Positions 2,625-55,994 of a stretch of DNA of 64,000 nucleotides are shown here, in pieces. The stretch is from IMG/VR virus record IMGVR_UViG_3300025536_000013, positions 1-64,000 of that record. One strand, given 5' to 3'. Positions within the stretch are counted from its first letter, which is position 1. Every line of letters starts with the position of its first letter. This DNA comes from a virus. A program made the position numbers and the translations under genes. The notes beneath the pieces are model-generated. The model was not told the origin of the DNA. It was given only the letters and a program-made list of their open reading frames with translations, and did no database searches.

Positions 2625-3359
2625 GTGAACCTCTGCATCGTCTGCGAAGAGCCGTGCAACGACGCCCGCCTGTGCCCTGACTGCTTCGACGGCGTGATGT
2701 GGGCGCGGAGCCAGAAGCTGCAACAGGACCACCTCCGAAGGGAGCTGACCGTGACCGACTGGGGCATGATCGTCTGCGAGGTCGAGGCGCTGCTGGAGCG
2801 GAGCCCTGAGATGCGCTCCGTCGAGGACAAGCTCTGGGACTACCTGCTCAGCCGCATCCACCCGATCCATGGCAAGTGGAGCGAGGCAGCCTACGCCGAG
2901 ACGCGCAGCAAGCTGTGCGAGTACCTCTACGACCACCTCGGCAAGCGGCCCAACCCGGTCAGCAAGCCGACGCCGCCGGAGTACACCGACTGGCTGTGGG
3001 TGGTGACGGAGATCCTCGGCTTCTTCAAGGACAACCCGGCGCTGCGTCAGGTCGAGCCGGAGTGCTGGGAGTGGATGCTGAACCAGACCTACCCGCTGCC
3101 GCCCAACCACGCTCCCACGGCCAGGAACATGACCAAGGCCATCCTGGAGCAGTACATGGGCGACTACGGCCCCACGGTCAAGATGATCATGGAGATGGAG
3201 GGCCGGCTGGCGGCGGAGAAGGCGGCGAGGGTCGAGGCGGAACGGGTGCTGCGAGATGCACCTGAACTGCTTGAAGGTGTCCCACCCGGCCTGCTCACGC
3301 CGGAAGCCGCCCAGCAGCTGGAAGAACAACCGAAACCCACAACGAAGAGGAGACGTTGA
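2625..3359 (+). CDS. hypothetical protein with N-terminal zinc-ribbon-like CxxC..CxxC
   Basis: GTG start. The N-terminus is CIVCEEPCNDARLCPDC. GC3 is high throughout. Confidence 0.6.
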   Translation: MNLCIVCEEPCNDARLCPDCFDGVMWARSQKLQQDHLRRELTVTDWGMIVCEVEALLERSPEMRSVEDKLWDYLLSRIHPIHGKWSEAAYAETRSKLCEYLYDHLGKRPNPVSKPTPPEYTDWLWVVTEILGFFKDNPALRQVEPECWEWMLNQTYPLPPNHAPTARNMTKAILEQYMGDYGPTVKMIMEMEGRLAAEKAARVEAERVLRDAPELLEGVPPGLLTPEAAQQLEEQPKPTTKRRR

Positions 3360-3796
3360 TGCCCGTGCAAGAGACCTGCGAGTGCTGCTCGGAAAAATAC
3401 GACCGTTATTTGACGATAAACGTGAAGGTGCTCGACAGCCATCTGTGCAACGATTGTCAGGTGCGAGCAGGCGTCTGGGCCGCGAAGCAAGCTCTCGCCG
3501 CCGAGCGGTCGGAGAAGCTGATGGGCGGCAACCTGTCCATTACGCTCGACCCGCGAGCCCTGACCGAGTGGCCCGGCAACTGTGCCCCGCCGGAGTTCGG
3601 CAAGTTGCCCAGCACCGAGGTGGTCTCCGACGTGCTGCCCAACGTGCTCGGCTCAAACGCCCAGCAGTTGCCGGCGACTCTGTTCGGCAGGCCCATCGTG
3701 TGGGTGGACGAGTTCGGTGAGCCGAGTTCTCCGCCGAAGACTGAAGCCGATCCCTTCTACGTCAAGCAACGTGAGGATTGGAGGAACGAGCCCTAG
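3359..3796 (+). CDS. hypothetical Cys-rich protein
   Basis: GAGGAG lies 6 nt upstream of ATG 3359, which overlaps the previous stop (TGATG). Cys pairs CECC...CNDC are present. Confidence 0.6.
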   Translation: MPVQETCECCSEKYDRYLTINVKVLDSHLCNDCQVRAGVWAAKQALAAERSEKLMGGNLSITLDPRALTEWPGNCAPPEFGKLPSTEVVSDVLPNVLGSNAQQLPATLFGRPIVWVDEFGEPSSPPKTEADPFYVKQREDWRNEP

Positions 3797-5161: not shown

Positions 5162-7003
5162 GTGAACCGTCGCTCGTTCCTCATCACCGGAGCCAAGGCC
5201 CTTGCGATCACCGCACCAGTGGCGAGCTTCTTCTCCGGTCGCCGCGTTCCGACCTCTGCGACGCAAACTGCCGAGGGCCGGCGCTTTGAGGTGGCTCAGC
5301 TGCCTCCGCCGGTAGCGGCTCCGGAGAAGATGCCCGCTCCTCGTGAGCTGCCGTGGAGCCTACCCAGCCAGGCGGTGGAGCTGGCGCTGCAGGATGCCTT
5401 GACGTTGTCCAGGCGCTACGGTGAGAAGGTCGGCAAGTTCGTTCGCTGGCTGTGGGTACAGAACGGTTCCCAGGAGGAGTGGCAAAGTGCAGCAGACGCG
5501 CTCAACAAGGTCAGCAGAGCAGCAGCTCCGGCGATCCCTGCGTTCGTTGGAGGCGTGCTTGCCCGCGTTGACCTTAGGATCTACTGGCCTCGTGCGGGCG
5601 ACCTTGCCGAAGTCCTTGGTCAGTGGGAGAAGTTCGCGTTCGACCCGTACTTCAGCTTGCTCTTCACGCAAGCCAGCCTCAAGCTCCTCACGCAAGAGCA
5701 GCTAGGCACGTTGAAGACGCAGAGCATCCGGCCGCTGCACGTGTGGCAGGACGGCAAGTGGGTGGCGACGGGCAAGGTCGGCTGGGTGGAGCGGAACTTC
5801 GAGAGGATCAAGGACGTGGTGGTGGAGCGGGTCAACGCCCCGCACCTGCACGCCAGCGGCATCGAGAAGCTGCAAGCCTGGACCGGCAGCCTCGCCCCAG
5901 TGGTGCACAGCGGCTATTTCGAGACCAGAGCCCTCAGCACGATCAAGGACCGTGACGATGGCAAGGAAAACGTCTTCAGCACGATCTACGGCGGGCTGTA
6001 CGACGAGCTTGCAGGGATACGAAGGTCGCAAGCTAAAGGACGCAGCGACCTTGACCAACTATTTCTCGATCTCGGTGTGGGCGATGGGAAGTCGTACAAA
6101 GATGTGTTTGAGAGGCTTCGATCAGATAAAGCAGCCGTACTCATTCACTCCAACGTCACCAACAAACGCCGTCGCGTTCGCGTCTATCCGGTACTGTCCT
6201 CCCTGTTCGGCATCGTCGCAGTGACCGAGGACATCCGCGACCGCGACATCGACGTGGACGCCGACGCCCTCCGCGACGTGGTCAACAGCAAGGTGTTCGC
6301 CTACGAGGTCATCTGGGTCGCCGCCAACGGCCAGCAGAAGTTTGCATTGTTTGGAGCAGAGGGGCAGCTGCTGGAGTCGGGTGCCGACGATGTGGTGAGC
6401 GACCACGACTTGCCCCGGCCGGTGACGACGCGGCTGCAAGCGGCCATCAGTTGCATCCGCTGCCACGGTCCACACGAAGGATGGCAGCCGTTCCCCGACG
6501 ACCTGCGGCTGCTGCTCGGCAAGGGCACGGTGGTGTTCAAGAACGCCGACGAGGAGGACCGGATACGCGGCCAGCACGCCTGGCAGATCGACGCCGTGCT
6601 CCAGCGGCTGCGGGACGACTACTCGCAGGCCACGCTCCTGAGCACCGGCAAGTGGGCAGGCAGCCCGGCGAACAAGGACATCGTGCAGCGGGTGTCGGCG
6701 GTGCACGCAGCGGTGTGGGCGAGGCAGCGGTATCGGACGGTGGACCCGGAGTACGCCCTGCGGACGCTCGGCGAGGTGCCGATCAAGGGCCGCGAGGCGT
6801 TCCAGCTCTGGAAGCTGTTGCCGCCGGAGGGTCACGCGGCACTGGGATTCTTCGCCGAGGACCCGCTGCTGACGGCGCTCAAGGACGGGCAGAGCATCCT
6901 GTGGTCGGACTGGCAGTTGGTGTTCAGCTACGCACTTACCAGAGCACAACGGACGAGGGCCGAACTAGAGACGCAACGTGAGCACAAAGCACAACCGAAC
7001 TGA
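5162..7003 (+). CDS. Tat-signal exported protein with a single CxxCH motif
   Basis: The N-terminus MNRRSFLITGAKALAITAPVASFF has the twin-arginine RRxFL pattern. A CIRCH heme-binding-type motif is present. The ORF is 613 aa with high GC3. Confidence 0.7.
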   Translation: MNRRSFLITGAKALAITAPVASFFSGRRVPTSATQTAEGRRFEVAQLPPPVAAPEKMPAPRELPWSLPSQAVELALQDALTLSRRYGEKVGKFVRWLWVQNGSQEEWQSAADALNKVSRAAAPAIPAFVGGVLARVDLRIYWPRAGDLAEVLGQWEKFAFDPYFSLLFTQASLKLLTQEQLGTLKTQSIRPLHVWQDGKWVATGKVGWVERNFERIKDVVVERVNAPHLHASGIEKLQAWTGSLAPVVHSGYFETRALSTIKDRDDGKENVFSTIYGGLYDELAGIRRSQAKGRSDLDQLFLDLGVGDGKSYKDVFERLRSDKAAVLIHSNVTNKRRRVRVYPVLSSLFGIVAVTEDIRDRDIDVDADALRDVVNSKVFAYEVIWVAANGQQKFALFGAEGQLLESGADDVVSDHDLPRPVTTRLQAAISCIRCHGPHEGWQPFPDDLRLLLGKGTVVFKNADEEDRIRGQHAWQIDAVLQRLRDDYSQATLLSTGKWAGSPANKDIVQRVSAVHAAVWARQRYRTVDPEYALRTLGEVPIKGREAFQLWKLLPPEGHAALGFFAEDPLLTALKDGQSILWSDWQLVFSYALTRAQRTRAELETQREHKAQPN

Positions 7004-7013
7004 GAGGTGCCAC

Positions 7014-8015
7014 GTGAAGAGGTTGATGGGACTGCTGGTGGCTTGCCTGGCGTTGGCAACGATGGCGGGCGAGACGCAAGCCGAGGGCGTGACTAACAGC
7101 GACGGGTACAGCTACTCCGGCAACTACTACTGGTACAACGGAGTCGCCTACAACCGCGAGCTGGCCTACTACTGGGTGGACGGCTACTACAAGCGCTCTG
7201 CCTGCAACTGCTACAACGTCTACGTCCCCGGCTACTGGCAGGGCTACTACAAGTACGTCGTCGCCCAGCTCAAGGGCGAGGACGCGGTGGTCAACGCCCT
7301 GACCGACCGGATGCGGACGCAGAACCTGATGGCCAAGGAGCAGCAGCGGCACGCCAACCTGCTGGAGCTGGTCAAGGCGACGGGACTCGAAGGCAACTTC
7401 CGCTTCGAGGGTTACTTCGGCGGACGGGCCTACCCGCCACTGGCACCGGCTTATCCCGCTGCCGCCACGGTCCACGGCTACACGTTCCAGCAGCTGCGGC
7501 AGGACTACGGCGAGCGGCTGCTGCGGGACATCCCCTTCGACCTGGCGGCGCAGCAGGCGGCTCGGCAAAGTGACAACAGCCGCAGCAGCAGCGACCAGCT
7601 CTACTCGCTCCTCGCTGGCGCCAGCGTGGACGACGCACGGGTGCGGGAGATCCTCGCCCGGATGGAAGCGGCCAAGCAGGTGTTCCGGGCCACCGAGCCG
7701 CAGCCGAGCAGCAAGACGGAGACGAAGGTGAACGGCACCACGGTGACGCCGACGCCGCAGGTGCTGCCCCAGGCCCAGATCACCGAGTTCCTCAAGCTGT
7801 CCGGCCCGGCCAAGTGCGTGACCTGCCACACCGGCGACGCTGTCAAGGGCAATTTCGACGTGAGCAAGCTGCCGACGATGAAGGCCACCGAGATCGTCAA
7901 GCGGGTGTTGCCGTACATCGTCAGCGAGCAGGGCGAGGCACCGAAGTGCCCGCCAGCAGCCAGCGGCATCAAGCCGACCACGGCCGCAGAGGTCAGGCAG
8001 TTCCTGGGTGGCTAA
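7014..8015 (+). CDS. secreted Tyr-rich protein with a C-terminal PSCyt1-like CxxCH motif
   Basis: GAGG precedes GTG 7014. KRLMGLLVACLALATMAGETQAEG looks like a signal peptide. KCVTCHTGDAVKGNFDVSKL resembles the Planctomycete cytochrome-c domain motif. Confidence 0.65.
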   Translation: MKRLMGLLVACLALATMAGETQAEGVTNSDGYSYSGNYYWYNGVAYNRELAYYWVDGYYKRSACNCYNVYVPGYWQGYYKYVVAQLKGEDAVVNALTDRMRTQNLMAKEQQRHANLLELVKATGLEGNFRFEGYFGGRAYPPLAPAYPAAATVHGYTFQQLRQDYGERLLRDIPFDLAAQQAARQSDNSRSSSDQLYSLLAGASVDDARVREILARMEAAKQVFRATEPQPSSKTETKVNGTTVTPTPQVLPQAQITEFLKLSGPAKCVTCHTGDAVKGNFDVSKLPTMKATEIVKRVLPYIVSEQGEAPKCPPAASGIKPTTAAEVRQFLGG

Positions 8016-50003: not shown

Positions 50004-51065
50004 TCATCTTGACCCCTTCTTTCGATAGAATCGAGTCACAACAACAGAGTTATACTTGTTGATATGTTCTCCGCCAACCCTCTTGAACCCACGGGGGACT
50101 CGATCTTCCCATCCGCCGTGGAACTCGACGCCGAGTGACCGAACGCCAGACCAATCGCCGTCCCAAAAACCTGGCAAGCTCTCTGAACCCTCGACGTCGA
50201 CCTTGACCACGGTCGGCTTGAAGCACGCAAGCAGCCCCGCAAGGTCCACCTTCTGAACGCGGACCCGTGACCCCGGGCGCTCTTGCGCCGAGCGCTTGTA
50301 GGTGAGCCGAGGGTCGGAGTCGACGTAGATGGCGTCGGAGCCGACGGCGGCTTGTATCAGTGTGCCATTGGGGTTGTTCATCCGATACAGTCGTGCATTC
50401 TCGGCATCGGGTTCGACGCCTATGCTGCGAGCCGGACACCACTGGGCAAAGTATCCGGCGTGGGCGCCGAGGTCAAGGACCACGTCGTCCGAGCGGATGT
50501 CGAGATGACACCACTCCGGCTGCTCGGCCCTGATGTTCAAGTCCACGGTGCCCGGTCGATACCAGCTACCTTGGCTCCAAGCGTACTTGAGCCGACTCAA
50601 GACCGCGGCCTCAGCCTCGTCAACTGATGCGACTTGCACGTGGTCAAAGTCGCGTATCACCTGTCGATAGCGCTCGGCAACTCTCAGCAGGGCCTCGTCG
50701 TCGAATTCCTCCGCACCTCGGGCTCGGCGACGTCGAAGCAGTTCTTCGTCTCCGGGGTCGAGGAAGAGGACTAGCAGGTCTTTGTCCCAGAACCCGCGTT
50801 GCTCGCAGCTCGGCTCGCGGTCGAACACCGAGTCGTACACAGCTGATGTCACTGGCCCGAATCGATCGCAGACATAGAGCTTGTCGGGATCATAGAGACA
50901 CTTCCATAGCTCGAAGCACATGTTCCCAGCCACTGCCTGCTGGTGGAAGTCTGCACCACGCGGGCTACGGTACTTCACGTGCGCAGCCCACGGCAGACGC
51001 TCGCAGAGCTCTCTCCACAGAGTCGTCTTTCCGGAGCAATCACATCCTTCGCACGCTACGATCAT
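50004..51065 (-). CDS. thymidylate-kinase-like (d)NMP kinase fused to an FkbM-family methyltransferase
   Basis: The N-terminus MIVACEGCDCSGKTT fits the ExxDxxGK(S/T)T P-loop of dTMP kinases. The C-terminus VVLDLGAHAGYF...VEPDAENARLY...VKVDVEGSE fits the FkbM pattern. ATGA couples it to the upstream gene. Confidence 0.7.
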   Translation of the reverse strand: MIVACEGCDCSGKTTLWRELCERLPWAAHVKYRSPRGADFHQQAVAGNMCFELWKCLYDPDKLYVCDRFGPVTSAVYDSVFDREPSCEQRGFWDKDLLVLFLDPGDEELLRRRRARGAEEFDDEALLRVAERYRQVIRDFDHVQVASVDEAEAAVLSRLKYAWSQGSWYRPGTVDLNIRAEQPEWCHLDIRSDDVVLDLGAHAGYFAQWCPARSIGVEPDAENARLYRMNNPNGTLIQAAVGSDAIYVDSDPRLTYKRSAQERPGSRVRVQKVDLAGLLACFKPTVVKVDVEGSESLPGFWDGDWSGVRSLGVEFHGGWEDRVPRGFKRVGGEHINKYNSVVVTRFYRKKGSR

Positions 51066-52092: not shown

Positions 52093-52533
52093 TTACTTTG
52101 TATGAATTGGGGATAGACCGAAGAGGGGAGATCGATCCCCAGAGAGGTTTTTACAAAGTTCAAAGCGTCCGAGACTGAAGAGCAAGAGACCTCGGCCCTT
52201 TTTGAGGAACCCGAGTAGACTGAGCATGTCCGCGGCTCCATACTCTCGGCCACTTTTTGCCAGACCAAGGTCCACCAGCCTATGGTGTCTCAGCTGAGTG
52301 ATAGACCCGAACTCAGCTGCGTGACACTTACGCAAAACGCCTGTAGCAAATCCAGAGTCATATCGGAACAATGCCTTTGGTCGTCCGGACTCTCGACACG
52401 AGACCAAGACATCATGTCTCACCGCAAATCCAAGTCCCTCTAGGGCGTCTACAGCTCCGTATTGATATGGAGCCGAAGTCTTTCTGAGCTCGAACCGAGA
52501 CGCGAGTTCTTTTACTGTCAGCAGTTCAACCAC
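52093..52533 (-). CDS. hypothetical protein (lower GC)
   Basis: AGGAGG lies 7 nt upstream of GTG 52533, which overlaps the HNH stop. The ORF is 146 aa. Confidence 0.45.
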   Translation of the reverse strand: MVELLTVKELASRFELRKTSAPYQYGAVDALEGLGFAVRHDVLVSCRESGRPKALFRYDSGFATGVLRKCHAAEFGSITQLRHHRLVDLGLAKSGREYGAADMLSLLGFLKKGRGLLLFSLGRFELCKNLSGDRSPLFGLSPIHTK

Positions 52534-52969
52534 CTAACAGCCTCCTCAGCTTCCTCAACCTGACCTCGTCCACCCCTGCAGCCTCGCTCACCCTGAGCAG
52601 CTGTCGAAGCCACCGTTTGCTCTTGTTCTTAAGCCCGAGCCTCTCTGCGTCTGCTAGCCGAGCTGCGCCTTTCATAGCCCTACCCTTGAGCACCTTGTCC
52701 CGGTGGTTGTCTGCCCGCGAGCCGAGAAACACGTGCTCAGGCTTCACGCACTCCGGATTGTCGCACCGATGACAGAGACACAGCACAAAATCCACCGCTG
52801 GATACGCCGATAACATCAGCCCGCGGAGCTCGGCCCTGAGTTCTGGCATCTCCAGACACTCGTCCTCTGCTCCCAGTCCCAACGCTTCGCCGAAACACGA
52901 CACCGTGGGCGTCGACTCCTGGGGCACGAGCACACGATGGGCAACAGCGGCCATCACTCTATCCTTCAA
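52526..52969 (-). CDS. HNH homing-endonuclease-like protein
   Basis: CLCHRCDNPECVKPEHVFLGSRADNHRD matches the HNH_3 signature. It abuts the 3' end of the polymerase gene. Confidence 0.8.
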   Translation of the reverse strand: MKDRVMAAVAHRVLVPQESTPTVSCFGEALGLGAEDECLEMPELRAELRGLMLSAYPAVDFVLCLCHRCDNPECVKPEHVFLGSRADNHRDKVLKGRAMKGAARLADAERLGLKNKSKRWLRQLLRVSEAAGVDEVRLRKLRRLLGG

Positions 52970-55900
52970 GGACCTTCCCCCTCAGCGCCCGGGCGCACTC
53001 GAATTGCTTCACAGGCTTCGTCCAATACGGAGCCCTAACCCCCTCGACCAGCAACGGAAAATCCGGTGCCCAATCGGGTGGCTCGGACATTATCGACAGC
53101 ATCTTATGCAACTGGTCCGACTCGACAACGATTTCGTCGTGGACATGCATGCACGGGTTGAGGCCTTCAGCCTCGAATCGCACAAGAGCATGGGCCATGA
53201 GGTCTCGGCAGATTGCCTGCACCGCGTTCTCGCAGTTATGCACGATGACTGGACCGTATTCAGTCATCACCGTGTATCGGTGTCGCGGTCCACAGTTGAG
53301 AAGATCATATACAGGAGAGATTCCCATATAAGACCACAAGCTGTTCTGGAGTGGCGCCTTTTTTGAGGTAAGAGACGAGTGTATTTGGGCTCGCTTTCCA
53401 TGGACCGCCTTTCCGAAGGAACATCGCCAGTGGTATCGGTTTCCCCCCAAAGACAACGTATTTTGTACGACGTGTGTTGTTTGTGCTTTCGTTCGGAGTG
53501 ACCATACGGACATTTCCCGGTTCATAGTGTCCGTCGTTGTCTGTCCTATCGAGCCATAAGGACAAATCGTCGAATCCTGGTATTGTTGTGATGTACATAG
53601 CAAACGCTTCAAAACTCTCTGTCCATTCCTGATAAACTTTGATGCCCCTTGCACCGTAACGATCCCAAGCTTGATCAGTCTCATTATTGCAGCGTCGTAT
53701 GATGTCTGCCCATGCACGATGCCACCGCACATAGAGCTTATGAGTCGCGAAGCCTGTTTGTTCGAGTAAATTGACAATGCGTTTTTGTTCTCTGTATCGC
53801 TTTGCACAGCCAGTTGTACAGTATCTTCGTCCTTTTCCTTTTCGCAAACCGCCAAGATTGACAGCAACAGCTTCTCCACAGATGCACGTGCACCCGACAA
53901 CGTAATTATTGTATCCGAGTCTAATCGGCTCTGTCTGCACGACCAAGGCATGGAACTTGCTGCCGATCTTAGGCACCGCAACGTAGCATCTGCGTCCAAG
54001 CGAATCACTGACTTCCATCTCATACCATCGTGAATCAAGTGGTCTTCTGTGACTGCTACGCCCAGCCATGTGCCTATCTCCCTTTCTCCGTTGTACACAT
54101 ATCCATCTGTCTTGACCCAAGACCCACCATCCCACACCCTATCTTGCGCAGTGACGCTAACTATCGATTTGATGCCGTGGTCAGTCAGTATCTTTGTCTC
54201 CGGACCAAAACAGAGACTCCCGCCATAAGTTCCGCGTCGTTGTCCGTGCGGATGGAGAAACGTCACTGTGGGCACAGTCATCACGCGGCCCATTGCCACA
54301 GCCCACTTCGGCGTCAGGTCCTCGATTCGCACGTCGCGGTAGTAGAGGCGCCGCCCGCTCGGCAAGCGTATGACCATATTGTCGGCTTCGCGGTAAAAAT
54401 CGCACCGACCGACGTGGGTCGACATGCCGTGCCGGACGCACGCCATCGCCGCGTCACCAAACTGCTTCCATAGTCGAGGTATATTGGGGAATGTATCTCG
54501 ATACTTCTTGACAAGTGCTCTAGACTCTTCCTCGCCCATAGTGAAATCTCGGCGGAGCTTATCGCCGGAGTGGCTGGACATGAAGCGGTCGAAAGCTCTC
54601 TTGAAGCCAGCCCAACTGAGGCCGTAGCCGCAGCCCAACACAATCTGCTTCGACACGACTCGCTCCCACGAGTCCTTGTTCGGCTTGAAGCCATAGAGGT
54701 CCGTCGCGAACTCGATGTACACGTCCTTGTCTTGATCAGCGAAGGTGTTGAGCAGCCGATCCTCGCGCGCGAGCCACGCGACTCCGCGAGCCTCGACTGC
54801 AGAGTAGTCGGCGATGCAAAGATCACCGCGGACACATCCACGAGTCAGGCAGTTGATCACCGCGCCCACGGTGCAGCTCTGAGCAGAGTTAGTCTCTCGC
54901 ATCTTGGCAGTCGTCTTGTCTGCCGCCTCTCGAAGTTTGTCGTAGTCGAGAACGCTGGACAGCAGTCCAGGCACGTCGACGTGAACTAACGGAATGGGAA
55001 AGTTCTGCGGCTGCAGTTGTCGGCCGGCCCATCGGCCAGTGTGGGCTCGGTGGTACACGTGCTGATCGCGCACTCGACCGTCTTCCTCCAAGGCAAGCAT
55101 CATGGCGAGCTTATTGCCGCCGGTCCGCACTAGCTCGTTGCGGAGCACCAAGATGTCCTGGAGTCCCGCAAAGGCATCGGGGCACTCATCAGGCTCGCCG
55201 AAGTAGAACTCCTCGGGCTTCTGGAATAGCTCGAACATAGCCGGCCGACTGATAGACGTGAGCTTAAATCCACGGGCCTCGAGCCAGCCAGTCATCTGCT
55301 TGTGCGAGCGCGGGTTGACGCTGCTGGTGAGCTCGTCGAACTCCGCGCCGGCGACGGACATGTTGTAGTCGTACAGATTGCGCAAGTGCTGCACGAGCGG
55401 CTTGCAGATGGGGATGCCACGGTCGTTGATCTTGACGTCCACGTCGAGCACGTCTGGCTCGTCGACATCCTTGACTTGGCTGTAGACTTTCTCCAACAAG
55501 CGCACATCTCGACGGCAGTACTCGACGAACTGATTCCACACCTGGTCGTTGCCCACGAAGTACTGCGGCACACCGTTGCGGATCTTGACCTTGCTAATCA
55601 TGTCGATGAGCATCGAGCCAGTTTTGTCCTTGCCGCGACCCTCCAAGAGCTTGCCGAGCTCGTCGAGCCGACCAGGGAGACCTTTGGCACGAGATGCTCG
55701 GACTGTGTCGAAAAACGTGGCCGGTTCGCCTACGAACTTCTCCCATGCGAGCGAGTCGAAGTCTGCATTGTGCGCACAGAGCGTTCGCTCTTTTGCTGCA
55801 CTGATGTAGGCCTGTGGTACAGGCTCTCCTTGTCGCCACACGTGGTCGACTCCGTCGACGCTCAGCACACAGCAGGCAAGCCGAGTCGACTCGTCCGCAA

Positions 55901-55994
55901 AGTACCGTCTAGCCCCGTGTTCAAGGTTGTTGGTACTCATCGTCTCGAAGTCGACGAATGCAACTTTGTCGCCTGGTTTCCAGTTAGTCTTCAT
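52959..55994 (-). CDS. family A DNA polymerase with 3'-5' exonuclease domain, interrupted by an intein
   Basis: AAGGAG lies upstream. The exonuclease motifs are FVDFET and AHNADFD. The polymerase motifs are DLCIADYSAVEAR, SKQIVLGCGYGLS and VHDEIVVE. The extein junction is TYGGSL|intein|CENAVQAICRDL. Confidence 0.9.
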   Translation of the reverse strand: MKTNWKPGDKVAFVDFETMSTNNLEHGARRYFADESTRLACCVLSVDGVDHVWRQGEPVPQAYISAAKERTLCAHNADFDSLAWEKFVGEPATFFDTVRASRAKGLPGRLDELGKLLEGRGKDKTGSMLIDMISKVKIRNGVPQYFVGNDQVWNQFVEYCRRDVRLLEKVYSQVKDVDEPDVLDVDVKINDRGIPICKPLVQHLRNLYDYNMSVAGAEFDELTSSVNPRSHKQMTGWLEARGFKLTSISRPAMFELFQKPEEFYFGEPDECPDAFAGLQDILVLRNELVRTGGNKLAMMLALEEDGRVRDQHVYHRAHTGRWAGRQLQPQNFPIPLVHVDVPGLLSSVLDYDKLREAADKTTAKMRETNSAQSCTVGAVINCLTRGCVRGDLCIADYSAVEARGVAWLAREDRLLNTFADQDKDVYIEFATDLYGFKPNKDSWERVVSKQIVLGCGYGLSWAGFKRAFDRFMSSHSGDKLRRDFTMGEEESRALVKKYRDTFPNIPRLWKQFGDAAMACVRHGMSTHVGRCDFYREADNMVIRLPSGRRLYYRDVRIEDLTPKWAVAMGRVMTVPTVTFLHPHGQRRGTYGGSLCFGPETKILTDHGIKSIVSVTAQDRVWDGGSWVKTDGYVYNGEREIGTWLGVAVTEDHLIHDGMRWKSVIRLDADATLRCLRSAASSMPWSCRQSRLDSDTIITLSGARASVEKLLLSILAVCEKEKDEDTVQLAVQSDTENKNALSIYSNKQASRLISSMCGGIVHGQTSYDAAIMRLIKLGIVTVQGASKFIRNGQRVLKRLLCTSQQYQDSTICPYGSIGQTTTDTMNREMSVWSLRTKAQTTHVVQNTLSLGGNRYHWRCSFGKAVHGKRAQIHSSLTSKKAPLQNSLWSYMGISPVYDLLNCGPRHRYTVMTEYGPVIVHNCENAVQAICRDLMAHALVRFEAEGLNPCMHVHDEIVVESDQLHKMLSIMSEPPDWAPDFPLLVEGVRAPYWTKPVKQFECARALRGKVLEG
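53235..54212 (-). mobile_element. intein (326 aa) in the DNA polymerase
   Basis: The N-terminus is CFGPETKILTDHG (block A). GVAVTEDHLI is the TxxH block B. The C-terminus is VYDLL...GPVIVHN followed by Cys+1. It is in frame with the exteins. Confidence 0.8.
53305..54069 (-). CDS. homing-endonuclease-like ORF nested inside the intein in a different reading frame
   Basis: AGGGAG lies 8 nt upstream of ATG 54069. WHRAWADIIRRCNNETDQAWDRYGARGIKVYQEWTESFEAFAMYI...LDRTDNDGHYEPGNVRMVTPNESTNNTR matches a widespread phage family usually annotated as HNH/homing endonuclease. Confidence 0.6.
   Translation of the reverse strand: MAGRSSHRRPLDSRWYEMEVSDSLGRRCYVAVPKIGSKFHALVVQTEPIRLGYNNYVVGCTCICGEAVAVNLGGLRKGKGRRYCTTGCAKRYREQKRIVNLLEQTGFATHKLYVRWHRAWADIIRRCNNETDQAWDRYGARGIKVYQEWTESFEAFAMYITTIPGFDDLSLWLDRTDNDGHYEPGNVRMVTPNESTNNTRRTKYVVFGGKPIPLAMFLRKGGPWKASPNTLVSYLKKGATPEQLVVLYGNLSCI

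Follow-up and report, generated by a model that had tools for sequence, protein, structure and literature searches.

In the 64,000-nucleotide stretch analysed here (positions 1 to 64,000 of the IMG/VR virus record IMGVR_UViG_3300025536_000013, hereafter the window), the gene for a family A DNA polymerase carries an in-frame intein, and the centre of this intein is the alternative-frame read of an endonuclease-like gene on the same strand. The reading favoured here, which we consider probable, is that of a class-1 intein whose mobility gene has been overprinted in the +2 frame, with splicing, internal initiation and homing. Judged from the sequences compared below, the phage polymerase inteins of one widespread family normally have their endonuclease out of frame. 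The features concerned are listed as follows, with the basis of each in brackets.

52959..55994, minus strand: family A DNA polymerase precursor gene, 1011 codons and a stop, with the intein inside (open reading frame (ORF) listing, Pfam, tblastn)
53235..54212, minus strand: predicted intein, exactly 326 codons, polymerase residues 595-920, in frame, at insertion site a (sequence, profile)
53988..54212, minus strand: N-terminal splicing region, about codons 1-75, with Cys1, the WDG..WV motif, block B TEDH and Trp66 (alignment A3, AlphaFold2 (AF2))
53331..53987, minus strand: some 219 codons at the centre of the intein, where the polymerase frame runs across the endonuclease gene (homology, AF2, frame identity)
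53235..53330, minus strand: C-terminal splicing region, about codons 295-326, with block F PVYDLLNCGPRHR and block G VIVHN (sequence, A3, AF2)
53305..54069, minus strand: nested endonuclease-like ORF, 254 codons and a stop, +2 frame (ORF listing, PHROG, tblastn, AF2)
54078..54084, minus strand: AAGGGAG, resembling a Shine-Dalgarno (SD) sequence, 8 nt 5' of the nested ATG (sequence)

The polymerase gene and its intein

The polymerase ORF matched the Pfam model DNA_pol_A with an E value of 9.6e-11 and had tblastn matches to the polymerases of APSE, Caulobacter and Jerseyvirus phages. The insert is flanked by TYGGSL on the N side and CENAVQAICRD on the C side, and the order of its elements is TYGGSL/CFGPETKILTDHG...VTEDHLI...PVYDLLNCGPRHRYTV...VIVHN/CENAVQAICRD, where a slash marks an edge of the insert. 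The motifs of the window intein are Cys1, T55-E-D-H58, VYDLLNCGPRHR and VIVHN/C, with Cys+1 directly after the intein at 53234-53232. Removal of the insert restores TYGGSL-CENAVQAICRD, which agrees with the YGGK(x)(x)EN.xQAxARD motif of related polymerases, among them alleles whose intein lies three codons away. The guanine and cytosine content was 48.7% in the intein, 58.7% in the exteins and 62.4% in the window.

Across the 23 members of alignment A3, the residues C1, T6, G13, I17, G29, G37, G51, T55, H58 and W66 were invariant, as were the terminal H, the terminal N and C+1. The splicing-domain profile built from A3 matched solved inteins, namely the NEQ068 split intein (1.4e-5), PI-MtuI (1.8e-3) and the Spl DnaX mini-intein (3.6e-3). 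No Pfam match was obtained with the window intein alone, and Hint_2 was matched by 4 of the 23 members of A3, the best at no better than 0.006. In the AF2 model of the intein, the pLDDT (predicted local distance difference test) was 80-91 for residues 1-40, and residues 300-326 were also confident; strands were predicted at 298-325 with pLDDT 60-76. A Foldseek search of the PDB with this model gave top matches that were all inteins, with E values of 0.25-1. When the intein frame was used as the query against 5.8 billion proteins, one homologue was found, P0108, which aligned only at both splicing ends.

On these sequence features, the insert is a real class-1 intein of the Hint superfamily, located in a conserved polymerase motif and presumably removed by splicing. 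An earlier note on this DNA had described a 326-aa in-frame insert with intein blocks, VIVHN and Cys+1, and this description was confirmed by the sequence, by the restoration of the motif and by the match of the A3 profile to solved inteins. Its description of the middle of the intein frame as featureless was likewise borne out, by P0108 matching at the ends alone and by low pLDDT over residues 68-296. A group I intron was sought with Rfam covariance models in 52800-54500, and no match was obtained at E<=1. Nor is the host gene split into two ORFs, as the window polymerase is a single continuous ORF of 1011 codons. The polymerase ORF was also unbroken in every relative except the SS3e record, which is described below.

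Openness of both frames and the start of the nested ORF

The nested frame is open from 54138 to 53308, with the ATG at 54069-54067 and the stop at 53307-53305. The ATG corresponds to intein codon 48, and 23 codons separate the stop from the end of the intein. The position of the 254-codon ORF and of its SD sequence given in the earlier note was thus correct to the base. The AAGGGAG motif is built from the intein codons G-E-R-E, and the second intein of locus L006, one of the IMG/VR loci described below, has an equivalent AGGAGG and ATG, likewise at intein codon 48.

Over the 831-nt overlap there were no stops in the polymerase frame, none in the nested frame and 15 in the third frame, which has 19 over the whole intein. 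When the nested protein was held fixed and its synonymous codons were resampled, a mean of 6.4 stops arose in the polymerase frame, and 0/400 resamples were stop-free. The reverse resampling, with the polymerase-frame protein fixed, gave a mean of 9.3 stops in the nested frame, and again 0/400 were stop-free. The double openness of the two frames is not due to chance, because no resample was stop-free in either direction; the earlier note had held that two open frames were not to be expected here, and the resampling supports this.

The nested protein could also be made by a programmed -1 frameshift from the polymerase frame, which would yield an endonuclease fused to the N-extein and the N-terminal domain of the intein. 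The geometry would allow such a frameshift, since +2 is equivalent to -1 and the endonuclease homology begins only after the ORFs have shared 27 codons. However, no X XXY YYZ heptamer was present in intein codons 1-100, the RNA structure at the junction was not unusual (z = -0.73), and SD-like motifs and starts lie at fixed positions in all three classes of layout described below. In addition, the +1-frame class would need another mechanism. A frameshift is therefore highly improbable.

The same arrangement across an intein family

IMG/VR was scanned with an alignment of the window intein and P0108, which yielded 35 loci. The hidden Markov model of the nested family matched an ORF of 216-395 codons in 29 of these. 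In every intein-associated case, the endonuclease ORF lay wholly within a same-strand ORF of 600-1300 codons and in a different frame. The same layout was found in APSE-1, where P46 is annotated inside P45, in the Caulobacter phage GB2A, in the Salmonella Jerseyvirus S10, and in three of four further metagenome contigs (L039-L041). In total, 30 distinct sequences including the window had no stop in either of the two overlapping frames and 9-27 in the remaining one, and no in-frame version of the endonuclease was found among them. At least five insertion sites were used, and both alternative frames (+1 and +2) occurred. The sites were as follows.

Site a: YGGKx/CEN, in the window, APSE-1, GB2A, L001-5, L014 and L022b
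Site a': ...EN/C(T/V)Q, three codons downstream of site a
Site b: RFVGK(T/V)/CILGLGYG, in Jerseyviruses and many contigs
Site b': displaced downstream from site b by a few codons
Site c: in another kind of protein (locus L021)

Homologous inteins thus occur 3-4 codons apart in one motif, GGSL/CEN... as against ...EN/CxQ. This shift can be seen by comparing window positions 53232-53240 with L007, L008, L010, L006b and P0108, and sites b and b' are likewise shifted (L011, L025, L031, L022a). The Cys+1 is provided where the other alleles have A, V or F. At site c (L021, 6001-6930), an intein with a +1-frame endonuclease lies in a non-polymerase protein (…NKLLQIS/C…VHN/CGSVYSD…).

Three layouts of the nested ORF could be distinguished, each with its start codon and SD motif at fixed intein codons.

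Layout 1: +1 frame; most members start at intein codon 68; SD-like motif from the conserved TEGWK codons
Layout 2: +2 frame; in most members the ATG is at codon 31 or 33 and follows the conserved codons for WDGEEW (GGAGAGGAG)
Layout 3: +2 frame; ATG at codon 48 with a strong SD; only the window and the second intein of L006

In four loci, the TAA stop of the nested ORF falls within the final CAT-AAC (His-Asn) codons of the intein (L006 918-921, L009 3443-3446, L015 6848-6851 and L031 6027-6030). Two polymerases contain two dual-coding inteins each, L006 at 74-922 and 1382-2341 and L022 at 5218-6078 and 6463-7383; the paired inteins occupy site b or b' together with site a or a', and the two nested ORFs of L022 are in different frames, +2 and +1. 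In a rough neighbour-joining tree, the +1 and +2 endonucleases formed two clades among free-standing relatives, and the window endonuclease was placed on a deep, long branch beside the +2 clade. The amino-acid sequence of P0108 can encode a +1-frame endonuclease, with a best-case score from degenerate back-translation 21-33 standard deviations above shuffles.

These comparisons bear on whether the arrangement is an assembly or sequencing artefact, in which a true in-frame endonuclease intein has been displaced by two compensating single-base errors. Such errors or variants do occur, as the SS3e record has two 1-nt insertions relative to its relatives. Nevertheless, the same out-of-frame layout recurred in the 30 sequences, which are independent and divergent and include no in-frame example, and P0108, from its amino-acid sequence alone, is compatible with a +1-frame endonuclease (z = 21-33). 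If the endonuclease were truly in frame, the polymerase frame as recorded would be unselected and about 6 stops would be expected in it; as none was seen, the artefact is effectively refuted and can hardly be credited.

Annotation of these loci has been affected by the overlap. In APSE-1 (L036, NC_000935, 3224-3889), the annotated P46 is 141 aa long, starts at locus position 3470 and covers only the C-terminal part of the homology, which extends from about 3251; a GTG at intein codon 68 lies at locus position 3242. The splicing-domain profile had eight matches in the set of 5.8 billion proteins, of which six were C-terminal pieces of polymerases of 102-121 aa (P0111-P0116; L039-L042). In the three contigs checked, these pieces were gene-calling artefacts, with the polymerase frame open all the way upstream: the callers follow the endonuclease frame and then take up the polymerase again from the first ATG close to block F. 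Such gene calling probably explains the scarcity of full-length copies of these inteins in protein databases.

The SS3e record (L043, NC_006940.2, 1160-4260) is annotated as three coding sequences, a polymerase, an HNH endonuclease and a polymerase. Compared with phage S10, one extra nucleotide is present at each of intein codons 12 and 102, and the insertion at codon 102 fuses the N-terminal splicing region to the endonuclease in frame. Either this old record contains sequencing error or the allele is truly fractured.

Selection on the two frames

The selection on the two frames was compared using codon-threaded alignments of the central region, with relatives binned by nucleotide identity. 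The share of substitutions at codon position 3 of the endonuclease frame was 62% at 85-97% nucleotide identity and 58% at 70-85%, and substitutions were not concentrated at the third position of the polymerase frame. In the bins between 70% and 97%, amino-acid identity was 0.77-0.92 in the endonuclease frame versus 0.53-0.84 in the intein frame; at greater divergence, it was about 0.5 versus about 0.25. Because of the excess at position 3 and the roughly twofold higher amino-acid identity in the endonuclease frame, the centre evolves as an endonuclease gene, while the intein frame is only kept stop-free. The claim in the earlier note that both frames are under selection is accordingly upheld at the amino-acid level for the endonuclease frame, but the intein frame is kept open and nothing more. 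By the genetic code, avoiding stops should be cheap, as a +2 overlap mostly means that no NTA or NTG may precede a codon beginning with A or G.

Mini-inteins and mobility

Five loci (L020, L027, L029, L033 and L034) had mini-inteins of the same family, 133-137 aa long and without an endonuclease. The mini-intein of L033 aligned to the full intein of L031 up to about nt 290 and again from about nt 757, and its alternative frame still encodes the first 15 or so residues of the endonuclease homology. Because of this two-block alignment and the 5' remnant of the endonuclease, the L033 mini-intein is concluded to have arisen by endonuclease deletion. In Jerseyvirus-like phages, the intein DNA was present in 163 records versus 376 with the flanking extein, most at >90% identity. 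Differential loss of the intein has been reported for APSE phages (PMC7313666). This patchy presence in relatives fits a mobile element.

Family and fold of the nested protein

Two PHROG families bearing the name 'HNH endonuclease' were matched by the nested protein, phrog_374 (E = 1.4e-27) and phrog_3377 (E = 8.8e-26). Its tblastn matches covered 802 phage records, nearly all of them free-standing genes of about 200 aa, and 107 homologues of 150-460 aa were found in a large protein database. By sequence similarity, the protein is thus a member of a large family, made up of phage proteins that are free-standing and carry the label 'HNH endonuclease'; the family resemblance described for the nested ORF in the earlier note was thereby substantiated.

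The AF2 model of the nested protein, made with 75 homologues, had a mean pLDDT of 85.9 and was structured from about residue 15. A search of BFVD gave 97 fold matches among predicted viral proteins, and the labels of these neighbours were putative HNH or helix-turn-helix (HTH) homing endonuclease, AP2/ERF, DNA-binding domain and PVL ORF-50-like. All 11 family-invariant residues (R126, C127, G139, R141, G142, I143, R175, Y182, P184, N186 and R188) were kept in the window copy, and its N-terminal motif of four Cys was intact. In the model, a strand at 172-175, a strand at 187-190 and a helix at 192-197 follow each other in the order of a beta-beta-alpha-metal motif. In our own reading, the invariant Arg175 in LDRxDNDG stands where HNH_3-type motifs have the catalytic His.

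Proposed mechanism and its weighing

In the mechanism proposed, ribosomes on the polymerase mRNA would read through the 326-codon insert. About 75 N-terminal and 32 C-terminal residues would form the Hint splicing domain, and the centre of about 220 residues would be a meaningless, stop-free peptide, looped out at the usual insertion point of the endonuclease. Protein splicing would then excise the whole insert and join TYGGSL to CENAVQAICRD. Separate internal initiation at the ATG at 54069, behind AAGGGAG, would give the 254-aa protein, which presumably cuts or targets intein-less polymerase alleles of co-infecting relatives, and repair would copy the intein and the endonuclease together (homing).

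Several points weigh against this reading. The splicing, the internal initiation, the nuclease activity and the present activity of the window copy are all deduced from sequence. The pLDDT below 50 over residues 68-296 of the intein is partly an effect of an alignment of 10 sequences. Other possible starts of the nested ORF exist, GTG at codon 26, TTG at 31, ATG at 65 and GTG at 79. No close relative of the window polymerase was found in INPHARED (megablast), IMG/VR or GTDB genomes, so selection on the window copy itself is not measurable. The window copy also differs from its family at 2 of 12 near-invariant residues, G161T and W189M. As regards the HNH identity of the nested protein, no Pfam HNH model was matched by the window protein or by any of 76 family members, no PDB sequence matched it, a Foldseek search of the PDB with its model gave no match at E<=1e-3, and no His was invariant in the family. 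The 'HNH' label is not verified, because of the lack of a Pfam HNH match, of a solved-fold match and of an invariant His; HNH chemistry is not supported, and the nuclease nature of the protein rests on database labels. NCBIfam also gave no match for the nested protein or for the 76 relatives.

Some of these points would be expected if the intein were real and the nested ORF a relic, whose endonuclease has lost its function or is not produced any more and whose frame is open only through recent invasion. Besides its two deviating positions, the window copy sits on a long branch with no relatives in IMG/VR or GTDB to show constraint, and the same-family mini-inteins derived by endonuclease deletion indicate that loss happens. 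Against this, the window copy keeps every one of the 11 invariant residues as well as the four-Cys motif, and its SD and ATG are good and intact; an unselected nested frame would carry about 9 stops; and the endonuclease frame of family members is under purifying selection. A relic is thus unlikely.

Another account is that the nested protein is a sequence-specific DNA-binder (AP2-like or HTH-like) and not a nuclease, which recruits another nuclease or acts in regulation while the intein spreads otherwise. It would agree with the missing HNH and solved-structure matches, with invariant residues that are R, C, G, Y, P, N and I, with the Arg that by our reading occupies the HNH_3 His position, and with the BFVD neighbours named AP2/ERF, DNA-binding domain or HTH homing endonuclease. 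Nevertheless, the family behaves like homing-endonuclease genes, being free-standing, multi-copy and patchy in hundreds of phages, and the inteins that carry it are patchy among near-identical polymerases. Furthermore, the strand-strand-helix at 172-197 is ordered as in the beta-beta-alpha-metal motif, and a downstream nuclease partner is not conserved. We regard the DNA-binder as improbable, about as much so as the relic, and retain the class-1 intein with an overprinted mobility gene.

Comparison with known systems

Arrangements of this kind are already known, from work published by the Gogarten group in 2025-26, and are rare. Gosselin, Arsenault and Gogarten described actinophage inteins with antisense LAGLIDADG or Vsr-like endonucleases and an endonuclease VII-like gene in 'frame 3', and proposed invasion by a free-standing gene as the origin (bioRxiv 10.1101/2025.01.02.630785). 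Like the window, these actinobacteriophage inteins are contiguous and apparently functional, have the endonuclease between the splicing blocks, give a structureless in-frame read and carry endonucleases related to free-standing phage genes. However, their same-strand case is endonuclease VII-like, whereas the window protein belongs to the WxxMxxRC...YGxRGI...DRxDNDGxYxPxN family, for which there is no Pfam model. In addition, the out-of-frame position is here a rule of the whole family, occurs in +1 and +2, and is found mostly in family A polymerases of non-actinobacterial phages.

Phillips, DeSimone and Gogarten reported a cyanobacterial dnaX intein with a LAGLIDADG gene in the +2 frame and frame-dependent selection (bioRxiv 10.64898/2026.09.14.751524). 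It resembles the present family in its +2 ORF over a disordered centre, in the constraint on the endonuclease frame, in the coexistence of mini and full alleles and in its sporadic distribution. It differs in combining a cellular host gene with LAGLIDADG, whereas the window combines a phage polymerase with an HNH-labelled family without assigned structure. The earlier note took it as established that the endonuclease domain of known inteins is in frame; with these two studies this no longer holds, as both antisense and out-of-frame cases have been published.

The nearest counterpart of the window is P45/P46 of APSE-1 (NC_000935), with a homologous intein at the same site (TYGGKS/C...LIVHN/CEN) and a homologous nested protein. 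The APSE-1 nested ORF is in the +1 frame and starts at codon 68, whereas that of the window is in the +2 frame and starts at codon 48. The nested P46 was already annotated in the APSE-1 record; no paper discussing the P45/P46 overlap was found in the searchable literature, and neither this endonuclease family nor this intein family and its breadth was found there.

The fractured genes of Dassa et al. 2009 consist of split inteins flanking a free-standing endonuclease gene (PMC2677866). They have, as here, short coding overlaps at the junctions, but their host gene is in two ORFs joined by trans splicing and their endonucleases are GIY-YIG or Vsr-like, whereas the host ORF here is continuous. 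Arsenault et al. 2025 described a hidden HNH gene in a methylase without a splicing domain (PMC11855218). In that case, ShiLan, the host frame is likewise open across the hidden endonuclease ORF, and the TAA in the insert's final four bases is resembled by the TAA within CAT-AAC of four relatives of the window intein. However, the ShiLan insert has no splicing domain and is thought to be retained in the protein, whereas the inserts here have full intein blocks.

Significance of the arrangement

We tentatively suggest, as a proposal in which we place less confidence than in the mechanism itself, that this is a stable, co-adapted architecture of overlapping genes which defines a widespread phage intein family. 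In it, the ribosome binding site, the start and sometimes the stop of the nested gene would be built from conserved splicing-domain codons, and the endonuclease would be of a structurally unassigned nuclease type without the HNH histidine. The earlier note had seen an intermediate between in-frame inteins and fractured genes; this agrees with the published model of origin, but the arrangement looks more like a stable architecture than a passing stage.

A phenomenon called rare in the recent literature would thereby extend, largely unremarked, to abundant phage polymerase inteins, including those of APSE-1 and the Jerseyviruses. The family gives comparative support to the origin of bifunctional and split inteins in which the splicing domain comes first and the endonuclease gene invades later, and it also shows the reverse step, from endonuclease deletion to a mini-intein. 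It is, in addition, a clear example of overprinting in nature: one frame needs only openness, which is attainable largely by synonymous choice in the other. The recurrent annotation errors, with the polymerase truncated or split and the nested gene missed or shortened, are explained in the same way. Furthermore, the Hint domain here accommodates some 220 inserted residues, probably without structure, and a large endonuclease-like family without a solved structure is brought to notice.

Other genes in the window

Few PHROG matches were obtained, and the polymerase has no near relative in INPHARED, IMG/VR or GTDB genomes, which suggests that the phage lineage behind the window is poorly sampled. 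Ten large window ORFs were tested, and a PHROG match was obtained for only three. A 353-aa ORF at 50004-51065 (minus strand) matched thymidylate kinase over residues 1-149 only.

A canonical HNH gene (CHRCDNPECVKPEHVF...ADNHRD; phrog_1872, 8.7e-11) lies at 52526-52969 on the minus strand and starts 11 nt before the polymerase stop. Comparison of the nested protein with this neighbour by hhalign was negative, and the two are unrelated. A two-component system of a nested DNA-binder and a downstream nuclease was considered and rejected, as no downstream nuclease was conserved across the loci. The genes downstream of the polymerase in APSE-1, GB2A and S10 are related to one another and unrelated to the downstream HNH gene of the window, a homologue of which follows the polymerase in L023 and L024.

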